Source: Dictyostelium discoideum | Taxonomy: Eukaryota | Length of the DNA stretch: 64,000 nucleotides | Reading direction: 5' to 3' | Assembly (NCBI GenBank): GCA_000004695.1 | Contig: CM000150.2 | Coordinates: forward strand, 3,904,001-3,968,000 | Program-made: the position numbers and the translations under genes | The notes under the pieces: model-generated | Told to the model about the DNA's origin: nothing | Database searches by the model: none | What the model saw: the letters and a program-made list of their open reading frames with translations, nothing else | In this document: positions 2-32,251 of the stretch, in pieces | Layout: each line of letters begins with the position of its first letter | How positions within the stretch are numbered: position 1 is the stretch's first letter

Positions 2-826
2 TTTAAAGGTCATAAAGAATATTTAAAATTATTATTAGCAGATGGTAAACAGCAAAAACCTGATAAATTTGGTGTAACATCATTACAAATTGCAATTCAA
101 AGAGGATTTTTCGATAGTGCTATATTAATTGTTGAAAGTGGTCTAGTTGATCCAAATCAAAGGGATACTAAACCTGGTATTAGATTATCACCATTACATT
201 TATCATTAAATCATTCAAATCCATCAATTGATTTAATTAAATTATTATTAAAAAAAGGTGCAAATGTTAATCAAGAATCAACTGATAAAAGAACACCTTT
301 ATTCCGTGCTTGCCAACTTTCAAGAGAAGACATCATTCAATTACTATTAGAATATGGTGCAAATATTAACATTCAAGATAATCCAAAAACTAATGGTTGG
401 GAATATTATAGAGTTTCAACTCCTTTACATATTTCAGTTTCAAAAGGTGATTACAATGTATGTTATTTATTTTTTATTTTATTTTATTTATTTTATTTTA
501 TTTTTGTAAATTTAGTACTAATTGGTGATATCATTCAAAAATTATTGATTTAGATTGTAAAATTATTATTAGAAAAAGGAGGTAATGCAAATTTAAGATT
601 AATGGATGATTGTGGTGAAAGTTTACTTCATGTTGCAGCATTAAATGGTGATATAGAAATGTCAAAATTATTAATTGAAAATGGTGCTGATTTTAATGCA
701 TTGGATTGTTATGAAGCAACACCATTAGATTATGCACAATCTGGTTATCAATCTAATTTAGAATATGTTGAATTTTTAAAATCAAATTATAAAAATATTA
801 AAAATGGAAAAGGAAGAAAAATGTAA
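2..826 (+). CDS. ankyrin-repeat protein, 5'-partial; exons 2..457 and 554..826 with a 96-bp phase-0 intron
   Basis: Frame-2 translation gives consecutive ANK motifs (TPLHLSLNHSNPSIDLIKLLLKKGANVN, RTPLFRACQLSREDIIQLLLEYGANINIQD, DCGESLLHVAALNGDIEMSKLLIENGADFNALD). Canonical GTATGT donor at 458 and TAG acceptor ending at 553. Both exons are in the same frame. Stop at 824-826. Confidence 0.7.
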
Positions 827-925: not shown

Positions 926-2193
926 TCAATCTTTATAAATTATTGGTTCCCAAATATTATTATCTGTATTCAAATGAAATTGAGATATTTTCCAATTTAA
1001 TTTCTTTTGATACTCAAGTATTTTTGATCTCTCTTTTGAAATATTAATTTTTTCACCCTTGCTAATTGGTACTATAATATCTTTCCAAACAATTGAAGAA
1101 TCTGTTGGTAAAATATCAGGAATTATTTTTGTAAAATAATTAAATGGTCTTTTATAAAGAAGTTTAGTTTCTTTAGTTTTACAATTTATAATTTCCATTT
1201 CATTTGACCAAGAACCATTTATTTTAAATAGTGGATTTGGATCATCACCATATAATAATTTAGCCTCAACCATATTTACATTTCCACCAATTAATGGTTT
1301 TGCAAGATTTGTTTTTTTTATATAATATTTTGAATTTTTAGATGTAATGGTAGTTTCACCACAATATTCAACAAATCCTCTTAAATAACGACCATAGAGA
1401 GTTGGATTGGTTATTGTATACTCTTCATTAAATTTTTCAAAACGAATAATAATATTACCAATTATTGGTAGTTTAATATTTGTTCCATTAAAAATTGTTT
1501 TTGTTTCAGTATTAAAGTGTACTTTTACACCTTCTCTTTTATTATAAATACATGATCCAACAAAAGCTTTTTCTTGATCCAATGTCTCTACCATATAGTA
1601 ATTATCTTTAATTATTTTTTCACTTTTATCTTGTTCATCAATAATTGTAACGTGAAAATTTGAACTTTTTGTTTCACCATTAACCGAACGAAGTGGTGAT
1701 CTAGTTGAATCTTCAATAATAGGTTTTATTGATAAAATATATTTAAAAACTCCTAATAATCTTTCAATTTCATTGTCTATATTTGATCTTTTTTTTTTAT
1801 TTTTTTATTTTTTTTTTTTTTAATCAAAATTAATTTTATTAAATTTAAATTTAAATCAATAAAATAATTGAATATTTACTTTAATAAAATATCAAATTCC
1901 CTTGCCATATTATCTGAATAATATTCATGTGTTGAATGGGGGAGTAAAAAACTTGACGCAAATTCAAAATGAGTTAAATCTGTTCCAATACCTATACCAT
2001 TTTTTTTAATAAATGAAAGAACAATGTGTAGTCTCGATGCACCAGAATTTTCAAGCTTTTCTAAATTCTCAATTTCTAAATCAGTTGGTGGTGATAGTTC
2101 TTTACAAGTTGTTTTAACATCAACTTCATTTTCTTCTTGATCAATAATTTCTTCTTTTTTATTATTTTTATTTAATATTTTAGTTTTTGCCAT
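926..2193 (-). CDS. oxysterol-binding protein (OSBP/ORP) family, short ORD-only member; exons 1880..2193 and 926..1787, 92-bp phase-2 intron
   Basis: N-terminal exon has the ORD lid motif ([20 protein letters not shown]). Second exon is colinear with the neighbouring paralog ([28 protein letters not shown], NLxREKSKI). Donor is AA|GTAAAT at 1879. Acceptor AG on the minus strand is at plus 1789-1788 (exon starts at plus 1787). Exon lengths 314+862 keep the frame. The OSBP fingerprint EQVSHHPP is degenerate here ([10 protein letters not shown]). Confidence 0.7.
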
Positions 2194-2623
2194 TTTTATG
2201 TATTTATTTAAATAAACATAAAAAAAAAAAAAAAGAATTTAATTATTTATACCTTTTTTTTTAAATAATATTATTGTGGTTTAAAAAAAAAAAAAATTAC
2301 TTTAATTGTTATAAATTTAAAAAAAAAAATAAACAAACACCAGATGAGATAAAATCTTATTTTTTATTTTTTTTTTGTATAAAAAAAAAAAATAAAAGAT
2401 TTGTAAGTTTAATTTTTTTAAAACTATTTACAAATCGATTAATATTTTCAAATAAAAAAAACACATATAGAAAAATTAATTATTATTATTATTTTTTTTT
2501 TTTTTTTTAATTGTTGTGATCATTTTTTTATTTTCACAATAATTTTTATTATTATTTTATTTTTTTTTTTTTTTTTATAAATTTATTTTTAAAAATGTTA
2601 TTTATAAAATTAATTAAAAAATT

Positions 2624-3837
2624 TTAATCATTTAATAATTTTGGTTCCCAAACACCCATTTCAAGATTTAAAAAGAATTGTGATGGAGCCCAATTTAAAG
2701 TTTTTTGATTTTCAATTATTTTTGATTTTTCTCTTGCTAAATTGATAGGTTTACCTTGAGCAACAGATTGAATGATTTTACCCCAAACTACACTTGAATC
2801 AGTATTTAAAATTGTTGGAGTGAAATTTGTAGTAGTTGTAATATTTTTAAAGAATGGTTTTGTTTCATTTGTTTTTAAATTTGTTATTTTACTTTCACCA
2901 TCCCATTGACCACTAATTTTATATATTGGTTTTGAATCAATACCATTATAAACTTTAGCTTCATATGCATGATAATTACCACCAATTAACGGTTTTGCAA
3001 TATAATTTGTTGAAACAAAACATTTTGATTTATTTGATTTAATTGAACCTTCACCACAATATTCAACGAAACCTCTCATGAAACGACTATGTAAAACTGG
3101 GAATTCAATATCATATTCCTCATCAAATTTATCAAAACGTACATATTTTCTACCAGTTGTTGGGGTTTTTACATTTGTAATTTGAAATACAATCTTTGAT
3201 TCATGGTTAAATAATGCTTTTACGCCTTCCTTTTTATTATATATACAAGTCGCAGTATTTGGTGGTAATTCACTAACTTGTTCAGTTATTAAATAATTAT
3301 CTGAAATTAAATCATTTGGACTATTTAAATCTGGTGTTTGAAAATTTAATGATTGAGTTTCACCAATAACTGCATTCAATGGAACTTTCATACAATCTTC
3401 TGGAATTTTATGTATTGTTGTTGAATATTTAAAAACTTCAATTAATCTATCCATTTCATTTTCAATTTTATTTGCACTAAAAATAAATAAAAAAAAAAAA
3501 AAAAACATAATAAAATTAAAATTATTATTATAAAGGATTGTTTTTTTATAATAAAAAAATTAAATAAATACCGTAATAAAATATTGAAATGATTTGCAAA
3601 ATTATTTGAAAAGAAATTTAAAGTTGAAAAAGGTGCTATAAAAGATGATGGATATTCCACTTGTGATAAATCACTTCCAAGTCCTAATCCTAATCTTTTT
3701 GCCATACTTGCAATCGCTACTATCTTTGATTGAGATGAATTATCAATTGCATCCATTTCTTCTTCTGTTAATTTCCCTGGTTTAACTCCATTTTCTATAC
3801 TATTCTCTTCTGTTAATTTTCTATCTGATTTTCCCAT
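2624..3837 (-). CDS. oxysterol-binding protein (OSBP/ORP) family paralog; exons 3572..3837 and 2624..3476, 95-bp phase-2 intron
   Basis: Contains a recognisable OSBP signature (ITEQVSELPPNTATCIYN) plus the lid motif (LGLGLGSDLSQVEYPSSFIAPFS). Donor is CG|GTATTT and acceptor TTTTAG. About 45-50% identical to the upstream copy along the whole ORD. Confidence 0.75.
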
Positions 3838-7016: not shown

Positions 7017-8100
<1,084 letters not shown>

Positions 8101-8176
8101 ATAAAATAAACGATTTTTAAATAATAGAACAAAAAAAAAAAAAAAAAAAAAAAGAGTAATAACAATTTTTATTATA

Positions 8177-8269
<93 letters not shown>

Positions 8270-8888
8270 ATTAAATAATAATTTTAAAATAAAAAAAATA
8301 AGGAAATTATATGAAATAATCATTTAATTTAAAATGATGGTAATATATAAATAAATAAATAAACTAATTAATTAATTAATTAACTATGTGATTAATAATA
8401 ATTAATCATAATGATTAAAAAAAAAAATAATAATAATAATAATAATATAAAGTTTTTTTTTTATTATTTTATTTATTTTTATTTACACGTGCTTTAAACA
8501 ATTTTTCATTTGTTTTTCATATTTAATTTAATATGAAAAATATATTAATATATTTTATTTAAATTTTAATAGTGTTATTAAATTGGAGTGGATTTTTATA
8601 ATTATTTTTTCATTTGCTATAAAAAATAAAAAAATATTAAAAATTAAATAAAAAAAATTAAATAAAAAAATAATTAAAAAATGGGAAAATTTAAAAAAAA
8701 AATATTAAATACATGTGCACCACAAACACACTCTTGATCTTTTAAAAATAAAAACAAACAATGACTAAACAATCTAAAACTAATTGTTAATTGTTAACTA
8801 CCTTTATCAATCTTCCTGGGGAATTAAAATTTTAATAAAAAAAAAAAAAAAAAAAAAAAATAAGAATAAGAAAAAGGATTACTTGTTG

Positions 8889-8926
<38 letters not shown>

Positions 8927-9000
8927 CATTATTTAATATATTAATAAAATCACACAAACCACAATAAATAATAATAAAAAAAATAATAAAATTTAAAAAA

Positions 9001-10017
9001 ATGACAATGGAATTTATAGTATCAAATTATAATACTGGAAATTATAATATTAGTAATAGTGGAGAAATATTTAATACGGGAGGGTTAAATAATCCATTGG
9101 CAGTAATTTATGGGTATTTAGGATGCAATAAATCTATATTAATTGGCCAATATTCGAGTATTTGGACAAATAGAGGATTCAATGTTTTAATTTATTATCC
9201 ATCTTCAATTTTATCAAATTATAGAAAAGGTGTGAAAATTTTAAATACATGGATAAATAAATATTTTAATGAGAATCCATATAGGTCAAAAGTATTAGCA
9301 TTTCATTCAATTTCATCTGGTGCAAATTGTTTAGCATATCATTTGAAATTAATGATGAATGATAAATACTCAAATTCAATATCAATGATTAAAGCATGTT
9401 TATTTGATAACATTTCAAATTTTAATAATTCAATATTATCTTTAAAAAATAATTTAATTTCAAGTGGTGATATTTTTAAATTAATAAGATCAATATTTTT
9501 ACCTTTTTTTATACCTTTATGGGGTTGGGGGGGAAAAAATGAGTTTAAATATTTAATTTCAAAAAATGTAAAACCAAAACCAAAAATATTTTTTTTTTTT
9601 TTTGCTTTTTATTTATTTTAATTATTATTAATTTTTTTATTTTATTTTTAAAAAAAAAAAATTCTCTAAAAATAGAATAAATTTCATTATTTAGTAATTT
9701 ATAATAGTGGTTATAATAATAATGATAATAGTAAAACTTTTATTAAAACTTTAAAACAAAAAGGAAATCAATTCAATGAAAAAAATTCAGATTCTGGAAT
9801 TATTTTAATTGAAAAAGTAATTCACGAGAATAATTCACAAATATATTCAGATTGTACAAATCAATTGATTGATTTAATAATATACAATTACAATAAATGT
9901 AACAGTATCGATAATTATAATAATAATAATAATAATATTAAAACCAATAATAGTAATAATAATAATAACAATAGTAATATTAGACATCAAAATAGTAAAA
10001 ACACAATGTATTGGTGA
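9001..10017 (+). CDS. TMEM53 / DUF829-like alpha/beta-hydrolase-fold protein; join(9001..9567,9676..10017)
   Basis: NPLAVIYGYLGCNKSILIGQYSSIWTNRGFNVLIYYPS matches the TMEM53 core (PLVILLGWGGC...Y..G.....Y). Donor AAT|GTAAAA at 9568, acceptor AAAATAG at 9675. Second exon is in frame and ends TGA at 10015-10017. Confidence 0.55.
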
Positions 10018-10309: not shown

Positions 10310-11255
10310 ATGGAATCAGTTATTGGACAAGTAAATCAAGTAATTAAAACTACATTAGGACCAGAATGGGATTTAAGTTTACTCATTAGTAAAGCTTTAG
10401 GTTATGGAATTATTGCAGGCTCATTATTATTAAAAGTACCACAAATACTTAAAGTTGCAAGTAGCAAATCTGCAGAATCTTTATCTGCTTCATCAATTGC
10501 CATGGAAAATATTGGGTATGTTAAAAAACATATATATATATATATATATATATTTTAAAAGATTATAATTAATTATTAATTAATAAATTATCATCACCAT
10601 AATCGAAATAGTTTCACAATTTCACTCCTTGCAGGTTATAAATTATTGAATCCATTTTCAACCTATGGTGAAAGTGCATTCATTTTAGTTCAAAATTTCT
10701 TCCTTTTAATTTTAGTTTTAAAATATACTCAAAAATTAAATGCTGTCTTTTTTACTGGTTTAGCTTTGTAAGTATTATTTATATATATAAAAAAAAAAAA
10801 TAAAAAAATAAAAAAAATAAAAAAAATAAAAAAATAAAAATTAACCCATTCCATCCACCCATCCATCGATCCATCAATTTAATATTAAACAGATATGCAG
10901 GAGCTGTTTTTGCTGCATTAAATTATGTCGATAACGATGGTTTCAATTTATTATTGGTAAATTTTAAATTATATATTTATAGATATATATAGATATATAG
11001 ATAATGATCATTATATTAATATAGGGAAAAATTAATAATCAATTTATTTTTACATACTATAAATATATATATAATAAATAGAAACTCAATATTCCATTAT
11101 TCATTATTAGCAAATTCCCACAAATCATTACCATCATCAAGAATAAGAGTGTTGGTCAACTTTCATTCATTACTTGTTTCTTAAATTTGGCTGGTAGTTT
11201 AGCACGTGTTTTCACAACCATCAAAGAAGTTAATAATCCAGTTAGTAAGTATTTA

Positions 11256-22897: not shown

Positions 22898-23960
22898 ACT
22901 ACTTAAATTGGAAGAGGGTTCGGAGCTGCTGGGGTTTGCCAGGCTTTGTTGAATTTGTATTTGTGAAGATCTTGATTGGTGTTTTTTAGTATTGCTTCGT
23001 CGTGTTTGATTTTCTTTAGTGTGATGAATTTTTCAGTTTCGATGAGATTTAGTTATTCTGTTTCTATGACCTTTTGTTCGAATTTTGGCTCTGGTTTGCT
23101 TTCATCAGTGTTGAACAATTTGTGACAGATTATCTTCCATAATTGGTGTGCTATTATTCCTATGAGATTGGGGAAGATTCTCTCAGTTCTGTTGTATTTT
23201 GATATGTCTAAGGTATCCATCGACCATCTGTGGATTTTGATGAATGATAATTTGTTAACTGTTGATATGATGGTTTTTTCAATATCTAGGATATCTTGGC
23301 ATAGAGTGAAGAGGTGAGAATAAGGGTCTCTGAATAGGTGGCCACAGATCTTGCATCTGGTGTCTCTTTCGTGGTTGATACCTGGAAGTGATCTTGAGAA
23401 GAATCTGAAGAGGGTGTTTCTACCTTTTTGGTGAGAAATGCTGTTGATGTTTATGAATACTTTGGGTATTGCTGTGTTGTATCTCACCGCCCATAACTTC
23501 TGCCATTCTGTTCTTCTTGGTGTTGGGTGTCTGTCTTTGATCATGAGTTCGTAAATTTCTTTCAGTTTTAGTGGTTCGTCATTGTCGTTTCTTATACAGT
23601 CTGGAAGTTCATTTATCTTTGGATGGTTTTGGTAAAATTTGACTCTGAATACACCCCAGTGTCTGCACATATCGTTGAGGGTTGAAGTGTGGGCTTTTTT
23701 TCTACTTAATTGCTCCGTGTACCATTCTTGTAAGGTATTGTTGTTGTTGTTGTAGTTGTTATGGAGTAGCCTGTTCATGTACCAGATTTTGAATGCTATA
23801 TGTCTTAGTTCTATATCCCATAATTTTATGCCTCCTTCTTTCCAATCTGCATATGCTCTGTCTATTTTCATCATAGTTTTGTATTTTCTCTCTTCTGTAT
23901 ATGTATTCTTAACTGAGGAGAATAAGAACCATCTGGTCATGTTAAATTTTGTTTAAATAA
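22829..23960 (-). mobile_element. 5'-truncated non-LTR retrotransposon copy (tRNA-gene-targeted TRE-like element): ORF2 C-terminal region, 3'-UTR and poly(A) tail
   Basis: Plus strand shows a 66-nt T run at 22829-22894, which is the poly(A) tail of a minus-strand element. A roughly 160-nt GC-richer 3'-UTR follows. Minus ORF 23053..23940 contains the Cys/His motif typical of LINE ORF2 C-termini (CKICGHLFRDPYSHLFTLC). Local G+C is clearly above the genomic background. The element abuts a tRNA gene. Confidence 0.65.
23053..23940 (-). CDS. retroelement ORF2 C-terminal fragment (Zn-knuckle-like CKICGH...HLFTLC)
   Basis: 295-aa ORF inside the retroelement fragment. No homolog in the rest of the window. 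Confidence 0.5.
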   Translation of the reverse strand: MTRWFLFSSVKNTYTEERKYKTMMKIDRAYADWKEGGIKLWDIELRHIAFKIWYMNRLLHNNYNNNNNTLQEWYTEQLSRKKAHTSTLNDMCRHWGVFRVKFYQNHPKINELPDCIRNDNDEPLKLKEIYELMIKDRHPTPRRTEWQKLWAVRYNTAIPKVFININSISHQKGRNTLFRFFSRSLPGINHERDTRCKICGHLFRDPYSHLFTLCQDILDIEKTIISTVNKLSFIKIHRWSMDTLDISKYNRTERIFPNLIGIIAHQLWKIICHKLFNTDESKPEPKFEQKVIETE

Positions 23961-24008: not shown

Positions 24009-24022
24009 TTGTTAAAAATATA

Positions 24023-24095
24023 TGAGATAGATGGGGATCGAACCCACGACCTAACCCGTGTGAAGGGCTCGTGATAACCACTACACTACTTTCCC
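24023..24095 (-). tRNA. tRNA-Val (anticodon CAC), 73 nt
   Basis: Minus strand GGGAAAG TA GTGT AGTGGTTA TCAC G AGCCC TTCACAC GGGTT AGGTC GTGGG TTCGATC CCCAT CTATCTC A. Canonical D-loop (AGTGGTTA) and T-loop (GGTTCGATCC). Anticodon stem AGCCC/GGGTT, loop TTCACAC. One A-A mismatch (positions 5 and 68) and one G-U pair in the acceptor stem, so functionality is not certain. Confidence 0.6.
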
Positions 24096-24299
24096 ATAGG
24101 CTGGAATGTTATCCTAAAATTTTTGGGAATTTTTATGATTCTTTTGTAATAATTTAATAGTTAATATTAATCACTATCAATCGGACCGCATCAATAAAAA
24201 GAAGACTCGAAAAATTCAGCCACAACTGGAACTCGAAACTCATGACCATAAAAATCCCGGAACACTTCATACCATACTGCTCATATAACACCAACTACT

Positions 24300-24689: not shown

Positions 24690-24745
24690 GAACCCACGAC
24701 CTAGCCCGTTTAAAGGGCTCGTGAAAACCACTAAACCACTTTCCC
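24690..24745 (-). pseudogene. truncated, mutated duplicate of the tRNA-Val 5' two-thirds plus its 5' flank
   Basis: GGGAAAGTGGTTTAGTGGTTTTCACGAGCCCTTTAAACGGGCTAGGTCGTGGGTTCAA is about 85% identical to the tRNA at 24023-24095. It shares the same 19-nt 5' flank (ATAACATTCCAGCCTATGG) but lacks the T-arm 3' half and acceptor 3' strand. The anticodon loop has changed to TTTAAAC. Confidence 0.5.
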
Positions 24746-25455
24746 ATAGGCTGGAATGTTATAGGTGGATTTACAAATTTTTATGTTTTTAGTTATCCAA
24801 TTCAAAAAAAATAAAATTTTTATGGTGGTTTCTTCTCTTTCATTGTAAATTTGACACACAAGTTGTTCTAATGTATATCCAAAACTCCATAGTTGATCCA
24901 TATTCAATCATTACCAAGCTTTTTTACATTGTATTCATTAAAACACACAACTATAAAATTAAAAAACCGTGAATATGGCTACTATTTATATTTATTTATT
25001 TATCTTCAACTGTTTTCAATATATTCTTGATAGCTTTGTGTTGGTATAATTTCTTTGGATAGTTCATCTGAACATTGCATCATATAGCCAGAAACCGATC
25101 GGTTCCAATCTTGCTGGCCTTTAGAATATAACTGATTTTTTGATACAACCCCCAACATACCAACTCTATATTACCTTTGATATAACCCTTTTGATTGCTA
25201 AGTCTATTCAAAGACATTTGGAAAACACGTTCATCAATATCAATTTTACGGGCGTACAACATTATAATCCCACCAAGTTTCCATTTACCTCTTTGTTTCA
25301 CATACAAATCTACTAAATCTTCTATAGTAATATCATGATCATATTTTTCTATTTTACCATTAATTACCTTTTTTTTATTTTTTCTAGTTAGAAACTATGG
25401 TGGGAATTAAGTAGAAGTTAATTCAATGAAGATAAAGTATTTTCAAAAAAAAATT

Positions 25456-25821
25456 TCAGAATAAATGACATTGTAACAACTGGTGGTCGGTGTCATCAGT
25501 GTTAGTTTTTCCTAATGATTTCTTTATTGTGTTGGTTATTGCTGCTGAAGTTATTGGTGTTGTAATGTTGGGTGATGATGGTGGTGTCGAATGGTTATTT
25601 AATTGTTGTTGAGATTGTTGATTTATTAATTGAATGTGTTGTTGAAGAAGTTGATTTTGTTTATCTATTACCTGTTGCTGTTCCCTTATTTGACGTAGCT
25701 GTTCATTGAAAGTTGATACCTGTGGTTGTTGTTGATGTTCCTCATTATCCTGTTGTTGCAATTCGTCATTATCAATATCTCCATTATTATTGTTGTTGTT
25801 ATTATTATTATTAGTTGACAT
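25456..25821 (-). CDS. hypothetical N/Q-rich small ORF (121 aa) inside the repeat island
   Basis: ORF only, low complexity. A second in-frame ORF (25080..25400, ...NQKGYIKGNIELVCWG...) lies just downstream on the same strand. No confident homology. Confidence 0.25.
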   Translation of the reverse strand: MSTNNNNNNNNNNGDIDNDELQQQDNEEHQQQPQVSTFNEQLRQIREQQQVIDKQNQLLQQHIQLINQQSQQQLNNHSTPPSSPNITTPITSAAITNTIKKSLGKTNTDDTDHQLLQCHLF

Positions 25822-25976
25822 TCTTTTTTTTTAATTATTTAATAAAATTTGATTATTTATTATTATTAATTTTATTTATTGTTTTATTATTATTGAATTT
25901 ATTTATTTTATTATTAAAATAAGTGATTAATTATTTAAGAAATAAATGTACACATGTATTTAATTGATGACCGTAG

Positions 25977-26108
25977 CCCTATCGCGTTTTTATTATTTTA
26001 TATTTTTTTTTATTACTGAGGTTGAATTAGAAACCTGGTTTTCTTTTTATAGTCCTCAGATTTGAGCGAACTCAAATCTGTTAACTACTCCAACCTCAGT
26101 CGATAGGG
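25977..26108. repeat. about 130-bp element with three nested perfect stems (8, 10 and 10 bp); MITE-like or structured-RNA candidate
   Basis: ccctatcg(25977-84)/cgataggg(26101-08). actgaggttg(26015-24)/caacctcagt(26091-100). Hairpin cagatttgag-cgaa-ctcaaatctg at 26057-26080. Confidence 0.5.
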
Positions 26109-26626
26109 TTAGATCCAATTTAAACTACAATATTATATTATTTTAATTTTATTCTAATTTATTATTATTTTCTTTTTAATTAAATTATTTTTAAATTTAT
26201 ATTATTTCGTATGGTGATTTTGTGTGTGACATTTTTAATATCTGGTATCTAATATCTATTATGAAAACTTTTGTGAAATTCAAATTAAATTTTTTTTTTT
26301 TTATTTTTTTTTTTGAGTTTATTATATAAAATGAAACAATTTATTAAAATAAATTGTTAGTAATAATTAATATTGAATTATTAATTCAATATTAATAGTT
26401 ATTTTTAAATGTTCTGTTTAGAACATTTCATAAAATTAAATATATATTAGTATTAACAAGATATTTTTGAGATCTTGTTACAGACATTCCTTGTAGAATC
26501 TTGTTCCCTTCTTGTTTTCACTGAGAGCCATTTTTATCTGTTCCAATTTGCAGAACTTTGCATTATACTTATAATTGGTTCAACATTACAAAACTCTTTT
26601 CCATTTTCATCGCGATACTTGATATC

Positions 26627-27600
26627 TTAGGTGATACTATTATCTATTCTATTTTCGGAGAGTGAGTTTAGCTTATCAGATCTTTTAACGAATTCGACCA
26701 TGGTAAAGGCACATCTATTTTGAAAATCATCACAGATCTTTTCTAAAGCTTTTTTAGTTAAACTATAAGTTCCTCTTCTACCTTGTTTTAAATGTTTTTT
26801 TGATTTTGTAAGTGCTCTTGCAGCAACTGTCTCAGTATAAAGTGTACCTTTTTTAAATCTGTGTGTGTAATTATTATGAAAAAAAAAATTAATATTATTA
26901 TAACTATTAAATAATTATAACTATAATAATAAATATAATAATAAAAAATAAAATATTGAAAGAAAATAATGACTACTTACAAACACATTATACACATTTT
27001 ATATGTATTTTTTTTATAATTTGATAATGGTTGAAATTGTAAACATTCATAACATTGTAAAAAAGTTTTTTCATCAGAATCAATAAAAATATCATTTTTG
27101 TCAAACTATTGTGAAAATGGAACAATTAAATAGTATTCATTTTCAATATTTTCCTTTACAAAGTATGATGATCTTGGATATTTTAAATAATGATCCATAA
27201 TTACTTTATTAATATCAACCCCATAATGTTTACTAGCAATATGTGAAAAATATTGAGTTCGTAAACGACAGCAAACCATACAATAACTATTTGGATCATG
27301 ATTATTAGTTTTTCTTTTTTTACCTATTCTAATTGATTCTTGATCTTTTTCAACTGATACTTTATATGGTGATGGTGAAGAAGATGATGGTGATGGTGAT
27401 AGTGATGGTGATGGTGATGGTGATGGTGATAGTGATGGTGATGGTGATGGTGATGGTGATGGTGATGGTGAGGATGTAATTGTTTTATTACTATTATCAA
27501 TTGCTTCATTATTAATTTTATTATAATTTATACTACAACTATTATAAATATCTTGTTGTGATTTTTTATTAAAATAAAAAGAAGTACCAAACTCTTCCAT
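26627..27600 (-). CDS. zinc-finger protein with (SP)n tract: BED-like C-x2-C...H-x4-H finger plus a second C4 finger; join(27205..27600,26981..27105,26627..26858), 5' end uncertain
   Basis: Exon 1 ...SPSPSPSP..., YCMVCCRLRTQYFSHIASKHYGVDINK. Donor AAA|GTAATT at 27204, acceptor CACAATAG at 27106. Exon 2 FDKNDIFIDSDEKTFLQCYECLQFQPLSNYKKNTYKMCIMC. Donor TT|GTAAGT, acceptor CACAG. Exon 3 FKKGTLYTETVAARALTKSKKHLKQGRRGTYSLTKKALEKICDDFQNRCAFTMVEFVKRSDKLNSLSENRIDNSIT*. Phases are consistent (0, then 2). Confidence 0.45.

Positions 27601-29878: not shown

Positions 29879-32251
<2,373 letters not shown>

Follow-up and report, generated by a model that had tools for sequence, protein, structure and literature searches.

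Within a stretch of 64,000 nucleotides of the Dictyostelium discoideum genome (here called the window; contig CM000150.2 of assembly GCA_000004695.1), whose base composition is Dictyostelium-like at about 22% G+C, three perfectly paired stems are nested inside one another in a segment of about 130 bp, which raises the question of what kind of genetic object such a segment is. A sequence-only reading had taken it for a structured RNA or a non-autonomous transposon. The stems do exist and are not a product of chance; a mobile element, ordinary in kind, accounts for them. They form an internal module of a mobile-element unit, being neither a gene nor a transposon in their own right. The earlier proposal was right as to mobile DNA in kind and wrong as to the 130-bp boundaries, and its independent RNA gene finds no support: the mobile unit measures 1,011 bp and is bordered by a target-site duplication (TSD), and the 130-bp segment has no TSD of its own.

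The nested stems and their fold

A direct sequence check found all three stems fully complementary at the coordinates that had been assigned to them, and found as well the alternative pairing that had been pointed out, with CTGAGG at 26016-26021 and CCTCAG both at 26054-26059 and at 26094-26099. The segment had also been described as having no coding potential, and no ORF lies inside it. Folded as RNA, positions 25970-26115 are far more stable than dinucleotide shuffles on both strands, none of 200 shuffles being as good, with -45.5 kcal/mol and a z-score of -6.7 on the plus strand and -46.1 kcal/mol and a z-score of -7.0 on the minus strand, that is, with nearly equal energies. The extended 148-nt hairpin (Table 1) reaches a z-score of -7.9 on the minus strand, and the module folded as single-stranded DNA one of -7.6. 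A sliding-window scan of positions 25000-27000 gave two structure peaks only, the module itself and 26300-26480, both of them within the 1,011-bp unit.

Table 1. Features of the mobile-element unit and of its nested hairpin in the window; sequences marked (+) are written on the forward strand and those marked (sense) on the strand of the ORF
Feature	Positions	Strand	Remarks
Complete mobile-element unit, 1,011 bp	25472-26482	-	Sense strand set by the ORF; boundaries shared among copies
TSD copy 1, GACAT (+)	25467-25471
TSD copy 2, GACAT	26483-26487
5' terminal inverted repeat, TGTAACAA (sense)	26475-26482	-
9-bp terminal hairpin, TAACAAGAT/ATCTTGTTA	26454-26480		Includes part of the 5' terminal inverted repeat
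Second palindrome cluster, four consecutive 9-14-bp hairpins	26335-26480	-	Near the 5' end of the unit; z about -5
Poly(A) tract, sense strand	26290-26314	-
Structured module, extended nested hairpin	25969-26116	-	Core of the sequence-only reading, 25977-26108; z-scores of the fold in the text
Outer stem arm, cgataggg (+)	26101-26108		Pairs with 25977-25984
Middle stem arm, caacctcagt (+)	26091-26100		Pairs with 26015-26024
Inner-hairpin block, about 40 nt	26054-26096		CTGAGG direct repeat (sense) at the borders; exact placement ambiguous
Inner 10-bp hairpin with 4-nt loop, cagatttgag-cgaa-ctcaaatctg (+)	26057-26080
Small side hairpin, agaaa/tttct	26029-26044		Partly conserved in D. cf. discoideum copies
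Middle stem arm, actgaggttg (+)	26015-26024		Pairs with 26091-26100
A/T-only spacer between outer and middle stems	25985-26014		Length and sequence differ among copies
Outer stem arm, ccctatcg (+)	25977-25984		Pairs with 26101-26108
Start of the element ORF	25472-25821	-	ATG at 25821; open to the end of the unit; stops at 25456, in the flank of the window copy
3' terminal inverted repeat, TTGTTACA (sense)	25472-25479	-

A 1,011-bp unit with its own target-site duplication

The module occupies positions of about 367-514 of the unit. Read on the minus strand, the unit opens with TGTAACAAGATCT... and closes with ...CCAGTTGTTACA, forming a terminal inverted repeat of the TG...CA type, and the complementarity of its ends is confined to 8 bp, the adjoining bases being different. 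A block of about 190 bp, which is present in copies L002, L003, L013, L014 and L011, is missing from the window copy just 5' of its poly(A) tract. The unit is flanked in the window by two tandem pseudogene copies, and when these flanks were joined in an empty-site reconstruction no ORF was restored. The TGTAACAA...TTGTTACA combination recurs once more in L002, at 10389-10847, but there it falls within coding sequence and is a chance match.

Copies elsewhere were traced through the ORF of the unit, for which an exhaustive protein search gave six further family members beyond the first paralogues, from other D. discoideum strains, AX4 and "Dictyostelium cf. discoideum". The resulting set comprises the window copy and nine further copies, which come from four other D. 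discoideum assemblies and "D. cf. discoideum". A single-copy locus had been named in the sequence-only reading as the finding that would count against it; the element occurs once in the window and several times in the genome. One locus of another D. discoideum assembly (L001, GCA_054883475.1) matches the window at 99.5% identity, and the element it carries is identical. In the paralogous loci L002 and L003 the hairpin again lies upstream of the ATG, by about 155 nt, and the homology of the window to both of them begins and ends at the same two points, 26482 and 25472. Complete units with shared boundaries are found in L001, L002, L003, L013, L014 and L011, and the flanks differ among the six complete copies of unlike location (the window, L002, L003, L013, L014 and L011) without any relation to one another. 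Of these, L013 and L014, from D. discoideum, are 74-79% identical to L002, and L011, the complete D. cf. discoideum copy, shows 64% identity. The other copies are rearranged (L012), 5'-truncated (L010 and L015) or partial or rearranged (L016), and the length of the unit among copies ranges from 957 to 1,184 bp.

Each of the six complete copies is bordered by a different 5-bp duplication: GACAT/ATGTC in the window, AGTTT in L002, AATTG in L003, ATTTA in L013, TATTC in L014 and ATAAA in L011. Since these copies share the same ends and differ in their TSDs, they were inserted by an enzyme of the integrase or transposase type, and a 5-bp TSD that differs from copy to copy is what a DDE integrase or transposase leaves behind. 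The module stands at the same site in every copy that covers that part of the unit, and profile searches of the window and of about 100 kb of Dictyostelium loci found it nowhere outside the unit. No tRNA genes were found within 5-6 kb of the unit in L002 or L003.

An ORF that continues beyond the unit

In the window the ORF spans 25456-25821 on the minus strand, encodes 121 aa and has its start 155 nt downstream from the module. In all subfamilies no stop interrupts it before the unit ends, and it runs on into the flank, so that its C-terminus is different in each solo copy. In three predicted proteins (P0005, which is AX4 DDB_G0294302, P0011 and P0013) the ORF continues in frame right after TTGTTACA for about 275 more codons: the residues '...TDDTDHQLL' are followed by 'HGSFSSGCKV...', and the continuation of about 275 residues runs HGSFSSGCKVCTTNQ...NNGSRFNNGQRF. 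A fourth protein, P0015, likewise links the N-terminal and C-terminal parts. At the DNA level, L016 reads ...CCAGTTGTTACA followed in frame by TGGTAGCTTCTC..., that is, the 8-mer TTGTTACA and then TGGTAGCTTCTC, and the junction of the unit end with the continuation is TTGTTACATGGTAGCTTCTC. The first bases beyond the unit in the long copies are TGGTAGC, and the same bases are coding there (HGSFS, conserved). Within a species, the N-terminal part of the long copies and the solo units show about 93% identity; between species the figure is about 50%. Judged by these junctions, the 1-kb unit evidently represents the terminal kilobase of a longer element.

Neither the ORF of the unit nor the 369-aa long form contains a Pfam domain, the long ORF has no match among sequences of solved structures, and its AlphaFold model shows no confident fold, with a mean pLDDT of 33. 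The pN/pS ratio is 0.32 between close copies, a value drawn from only 14 differences, and comparison with a D. cf. discoideum copy gives a dN/dS of 0.36, comparisons with cfL011 being left out for an in-frame stop or intron. Since pN is close to the non-coding divergence, coding constraint carries no weight in the argument.

Evolution of the hairpin across copies

The six D. discoideum copies all fold alike, with z-scores from -5.1 to -7.9, and paired cells amount to 94% in an alignment of eight copies. Among the 47 pairs of these eight copies (three copies were tested first) no compensatory change was found, and the covariation score of the eight equals that of shuffles. About nine pair-breaking changes and five switches between G.U and A-U have occurred among them, as neutral decay would give. 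On the sense strand, the first pair of the middle stem is G.U in place of A-U in most other copies, and it is on this strand only that the helices are made longer, by five or six G.U pairs. Between subfamilies with 64% identity, few blocks are conserved as well as the outer arms and their neighbours (GATCTAACCCTATCGGCTGAG, AATAAAAACGCGATAGGGC).

The inner part has behaved differently. About 40 nt are missing from the D. cf. discoideum copies, a loss that takes away the inner hairpin together with some of the middle stem, and the edges of this gap are formed by the direct repeat CTGAGG, the very sequence of the alternative pairing. The inner hairpin is a lineage-specific palindromic block, confined to D. 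discoideum copies. Its stem has stayed intact or almost so, and its loop varies: on the sense strand the loop is TTCG in the window, L002 and L003, CTCG in L013, and ATTA in L014, and L012 has CGAA, which is TTCG exactly reverse-complemented, between unchanged stems. The loop of L012 is a flip of the hairpin. Together, the loop flip and the 40-nt indel point to the dynamics of palindromes (template switching or cruciform-type events) and not to selection on an RNA, and the perfect stems are inherited through the copying of the element.

An LTR or a DNA transposon

As far as its sequence can tell, the unit is probably an LTR, its six complete copies, that of the window among them, being candidate solo LTRs, with a putative gag-like ORF that would begin within the LTR, as in yeast Ty1, and with TGGTAGC as the predicted primer-binding site. 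In favour of this are the TG...CA ends with a short inverted repeat and a 5-bp TSD, the same boundaries in every subfamily, and the start of the ORF in the repeat together with a TGG immediately after it. Moreover, the units are nearer to the long copies of their own species than to the units of other species, and this difference fits LTRs that evolve together with their own element. The Ty1 primer-binding site begins with TGGTAGC, a sequence complementary to the ...GCUACCA with which initiator tRNAs of animals and fungi end. Here it would bind the ...GCUACCA-3' end of an initiator-type tRNA, a fit to the generic end found in other eukaryotes. An initiator tRNA-Met with a 3' end of ...AGAAGCUACCA would be complementary to TGGTAGCTTCT over 11-12 nt. 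A TGG just after the left LTR is the canonical mark of a primer-binding site, and in D. discoideum DGLT-A a TGG primer-binding site is found 2 bp after the LTR (PMC5006619).

No two units flanking an internal region were found among the copies recovered, the sole long locus, L016, being truncated on both sides by DIRS-1 fragments, and neither an RT nor an integrase gene linked to the long ORF was seen at the L016 locus or in domain searches with the long ORF. The element may have no pol gene of its own, in which case it would be gag-only and mobilised in trans. Described dictyostelid LTRs measure 208-390 bp (PMC5006619, Table 1), a range outside which the unit falls at 957-1,184 bp; an LTR of such length would be a family not in PMC5006619.

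The main rival takes the 1-kb unit for a cut-and-paste DNA transposon of the non-autonomous sort that arose by deletion from a longer one and is moved by an integrase-like transposase of the kind of Tdd-4/Tdd-5 (Ginger2/Tdd); the unit would then possibly be a catalogued thug or DDT-S, and the module would be a subterminal palindrome or a 5'-UTR element. The termini do obey TGTNR...CA, and the 5-bp TSD is as in Tdd-4 and Tdd-5 of the same genome (PMC2836005), the unit has terminal inverted repeats and many subterminal palindromes, and D. discoideum has DNA-transposon proteins without a recognisable transposase domain (PMC5633606), as is the long ORF, beside which no second unit and no RT was seen. 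Against this, the inverted repeat is 8 bp long, as compared with 260-297 bp in Tdd-4 and Tdd-5, and a breakpoint exactly at TTGTTACA would have to recur separately in at least three subfamilies, each of them like the long copies of its own species. An ORF that is open through the terminal repeat in all subfamilies would also be odd for a deletion derivative, and the TGGTAGC right behind the unit end would be left without an explanation. A DNA transposon of this kind is regarded as the less likely reading, and the unit is treated below as a probable LTR.

Possible roles of the module

Retroelement leaders are the site of strand-transfer, packaging or dimerisation structures. By analogy, it is possible, rather than probable, that the module lies in the leader of the element RNA and folds as a branched hairpin of the R/U5 type: transcription starting upstream of the module would give the element RNA such a leader hairpin, of which the conserved outer stem would be the frame and the inner palindrome a lineage-specific, flip-prone part. 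The G.U pairs confined to the sense strand give weak support to an RNA leader structure.

Alternatively, the outer inverted repeat AACCCTATCG...CGATAGGG might act as DNA, as a site for a dimeric protein (the enzyme of the element or a host factor) or as a promoter of the ORF, the RNA fold being incidental. The inverted repeat CCCTATCG/CGATAGGG is conserved, with both arms kept in sequence and not just in pairing at 64% identity between subfamilies, while the spacer and the inner parts vary or are missing; the lack of covariation, a fold energy that is alike on both strands and as DNA, and the further short palindromes at the 5' end of the unit agree with this. No binding protein or motif is known for it, a distance of 116-130 nt between the arms is large for a single dimeric site, and the five or six G.U pairs that extend the helices on the sense strand only speak weakly for RNA. 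Such a function in DNA is a serious alternative, judged slightly less probable than the leader hairpin, which is kept as the tentative reading of the module.

An RNA gene or a miniature element

It is very unlikely that the module is an independent structured ncRNA gene or a miRNA-like precursor that happens to sit in a repeat, like the thug-S-derived miRNAs. Its fold is very stable, its inner stem is kept around a variable loop, and transposon-derived miRNAs are known in D. discoideum (PMC4894637, PMC6161686), thug-S being one source (PMC4894637). Nevertheless, the arms carry asymmetric insertions of 24 and 30 nt, unlike a Dicer substrate, and the inner hairpin is wholly absent from the D. 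cf. discoideum copies. None of the published D. discoideum miRNA sequences and hairpins that were compared maps to the unit, the hairpins listed by Liao et al. 2018 included, and the thug-S intron miRNA (miRNA_can_D3, PMC4894637) has no match in the unit or its copies at up to 3 mismatches. A full-text search of the available papers for sequence strings and gene identifiers gave no match, and exact-pattern scans of metagenome and prokaryotic genome collections gave either 0 matches or six of 22 nt that are due to chance, in DNA that is unrelated and has 38-40% GC. The sole Rfam match in the whole window is a tRNA-Val(CAC) at 24022-24096, and positions 25800-26300 have none even at E<=10. Small-RNA genes of Dictyostelium carry the DUSE motif, [AT]CCCA[CT]AA, about 60 nt upstream. 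It is absent from that position here, the nearest match lying at 23816, and its 8 occurrences in the window are as many as chance would give. With no Rfam family, no upstream promoter motif and no compensatory change, the RNA gene was dropped.

It is just as improbable that the 130-150-bp palindrome is a miniature inverted-repeat element (MITE) that entered the larger unit at a time when the latter had not yet spread, a candidate suggested by an 11-bp imperfect inverted repeat (TAGCCCTATCG/CGATAGGGTTA) and by TA dinucleotides readable as flanks and rejected for want of a convincing TSD and of free copies, since TA flanks are expected by chance in DNA of 78% A+T, the outer arms stand at the same place in every subfamily, and the window and about 100 kb of Dictyostelium loci hold no free-standing copy.

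Implications for annotation

Several 'hypothetical protein' genes, namely the 121-aa ORF, DDB_G0271474 and DDB_G0294302 of AX4, and the ACTFI* model series, are read-through artefacts of one mobile element. For annotation, the GC-rich hairpin in this AT-rich intergenic DNA is to be masked as a repeat and not taken as an ncRNA candidate. To our knowledge, the list of mobile elements of D. discoideum is regarded as complete; if the low-copy family described here, with its TG...CA ends, 5-bp TSD, ORF from the terminal unit and TGGTAGC, is not a catalogued thug or DDT, it would add a new LTR-type lineage. Additionally, the exact inversion of a loop between paralogous copies illustrates palindrome flip-flop cleanly in DNA of the nucleus.

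Comparison with known systems

Some of the closest likenesses are to DNA transposons of the same genome. Tdd-4 and Tdd-5 possess TGTNR termini, a 5-bp TSD, inverted repeats of 260-297 bp and an integrase-like transposase, and the criteria for Ginger2/Tdd elements are TGTNR termini, a 4-5-bp TSD and inverted repeats of about 45-300 bp (PMC2836005). The unit shares the TGTNR termini and the 5-bp TSD, whereas its 8-bp inverted repeat is below that range and its ORF shows no integrase-like Pfam domain. The thug family makes up 0.1% of the D. discoideum genome (PMC5633606), and thug-S, thug-T and DDT-S, compared here by description only, resemble the unit in being small, low-copy and palindrome-rich elements of the same genome.

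Among LTR elements, those of the D. discoideum genome are only of the Ty3/gypsy type, with no Ty1/copia-like ones, and the 'H3R' repeats of this species are solo LTRs of DGLT-A (PMC5006619). In contrast to described dictyostelid LTRs, the unit is three to five times longer and, in L002 and L003, has no association with tRNA genes. It resembles 'H3R' and the delta and sigma solo LTRs of yeast (of Ty1 and Ty3, respectively) in its dispersed single units, its TG...CA ends and its 5-bp TSD. The sigma repeat of Ty3 has TG...CA ends with a short (8-bp) inverted repeat, and in Ty1 the ORF starts in the terminal repeat, with a TGG... motif right behind it. A more specific proposal, offered tentatively, is that the unit may be the LTR of a retroelement family of the D. 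discoideum species complex outside Skipper-1, Skipper-2 and DGLT-A, with LTRs of 1.0-1.2 kb, a gag-like ORF starting from the LTR and a Ty1-like TGGTAGC primer site, possibly pol-less and mobilised in trans, and that the nested hairpin may be its leader (R/U5) structure.

The inner hairpin, in turn, has its parallel in plastid non-coding DNA, where the 'flip-flop' inversion of hairpin loops at short perfect inverted repeats is well known. The likeness lies in a loop that is swapped for its exact reverse complement between unchanged stems, and the difference in that the swap is seen here between paralogous copies of a nuclear mobile element. As a putative leader structure, the module as a whole would resemble the R/U5 hairpins of retroviruses and LTR retrotransposons (TAR, the poly(A) hairpin and the Ty1 leader) in being a stable branched hairpin upstream of a putative gag start and within a terminal repeat.

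Variants of the repeat unit and its surroundings

A ~190-bp block of the unit (~5330-5520 of L002, another D. discoideum locus with a complete copy) is absent from the window copy at 26314-26322 and present in all other complete copies, and a 30-nt stretch within it has the same sequence in D. discoideum as in D. cf. discoideum. At locus L012, a rearranged copy (2123-3501) consists of the unit body, then 132 bp, then the last ~190 bp of that same unit, inverted; this is also the copy in which the loop of the inner hairpin is flipped. In the window, the unit has one stop-riddled copy of a gene for a small protein on each side, and its insertion point falls between the two; the motif S-x-[DN]-R-[IL]-[DS]-N-x-x-G-Y…N characterises the family to which both copies belong.

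Mobile-element-like genes near the copies

Several unit copies are hosted by clusters of DIRS-1-like fragments, found at 7157-9360 and 11832-12680 of L016 (a long copy with its ends cut by such fragments), at 1-1847 of L011 (a complete D. cf. discoideum copy) and at 8773-8825 of L014 (a D. discoideum locus with the complete unit). Tyrosine recombinase and RT ORFs occur within these fragments, and gene model P0004 has a recombinase C-terminus fused to the unit's own ORF. The transposase-domain gene of L010 is located ~1 kb upstream of a 5'-truncated copy in D. cf. discoideum. The 790-aa ORF of the window carries an N-terminal transposase-type helix-turn-helix (HTH_28, HTH_Tnp_ISL3 and HTH_23) and may represent a transposase gene that has been domesticated or has decayed.

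Features around the unit and its copies
Feature	Location	Strand	Remarks
790-aa ORF	window 29879-32251	-	extremely N/Q/H-rich
Two tandem small-protein-family copies	window 26620-26860 and 25080-25350	-	stop-riddled
Degenerate tRNA-Val-like fragment	window ~24690-24750	-	contains …GTGGTTTAGTGGTT…GGGTTCAAT…
295-aa ORF	window 23053-23940	-	directly downstream of tRNA-Val
354-aa gene	L010 891-2538		DDE_Tnp_1/DDE_Tnp_4 domains (PIF/Harbinger- or IS5-like transposase)
Repeated hairpins	L002 ~560-680	-	ACCATATTAATTTCAGC / GCTGAAATTAATATGG

The tRNA-Val neighbourhood and comparison with known elements

The tRNA-Val-like fragment has direct repeats, TTTTTTTTGAATTGGATAAC, on both sides. The 295-aa ORF, whose only match is a weak, sub-threshold one to Forkhead, probably represents part of a broken-up element of the TRE3 type. 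A 2.37-kb insertion is observed in the other D. discoideum assembly (L001 11685-14054), the window being without it (~24126-24142); it encloses a 444-aa ORF with no Pfam match, and between its end and the downstream tRNA-Val(CAC) there are 47 bp. The insertion looks like a retrotransposon of the TRE5-A.2 type, polymorphic between strains and placed at the classic distance of ~48 bp. The repeated hairpins of L002 resemble, with 3 mismatches, miRNA_can_D3, the location of which is given as a thug-S intron (PMC4894637).
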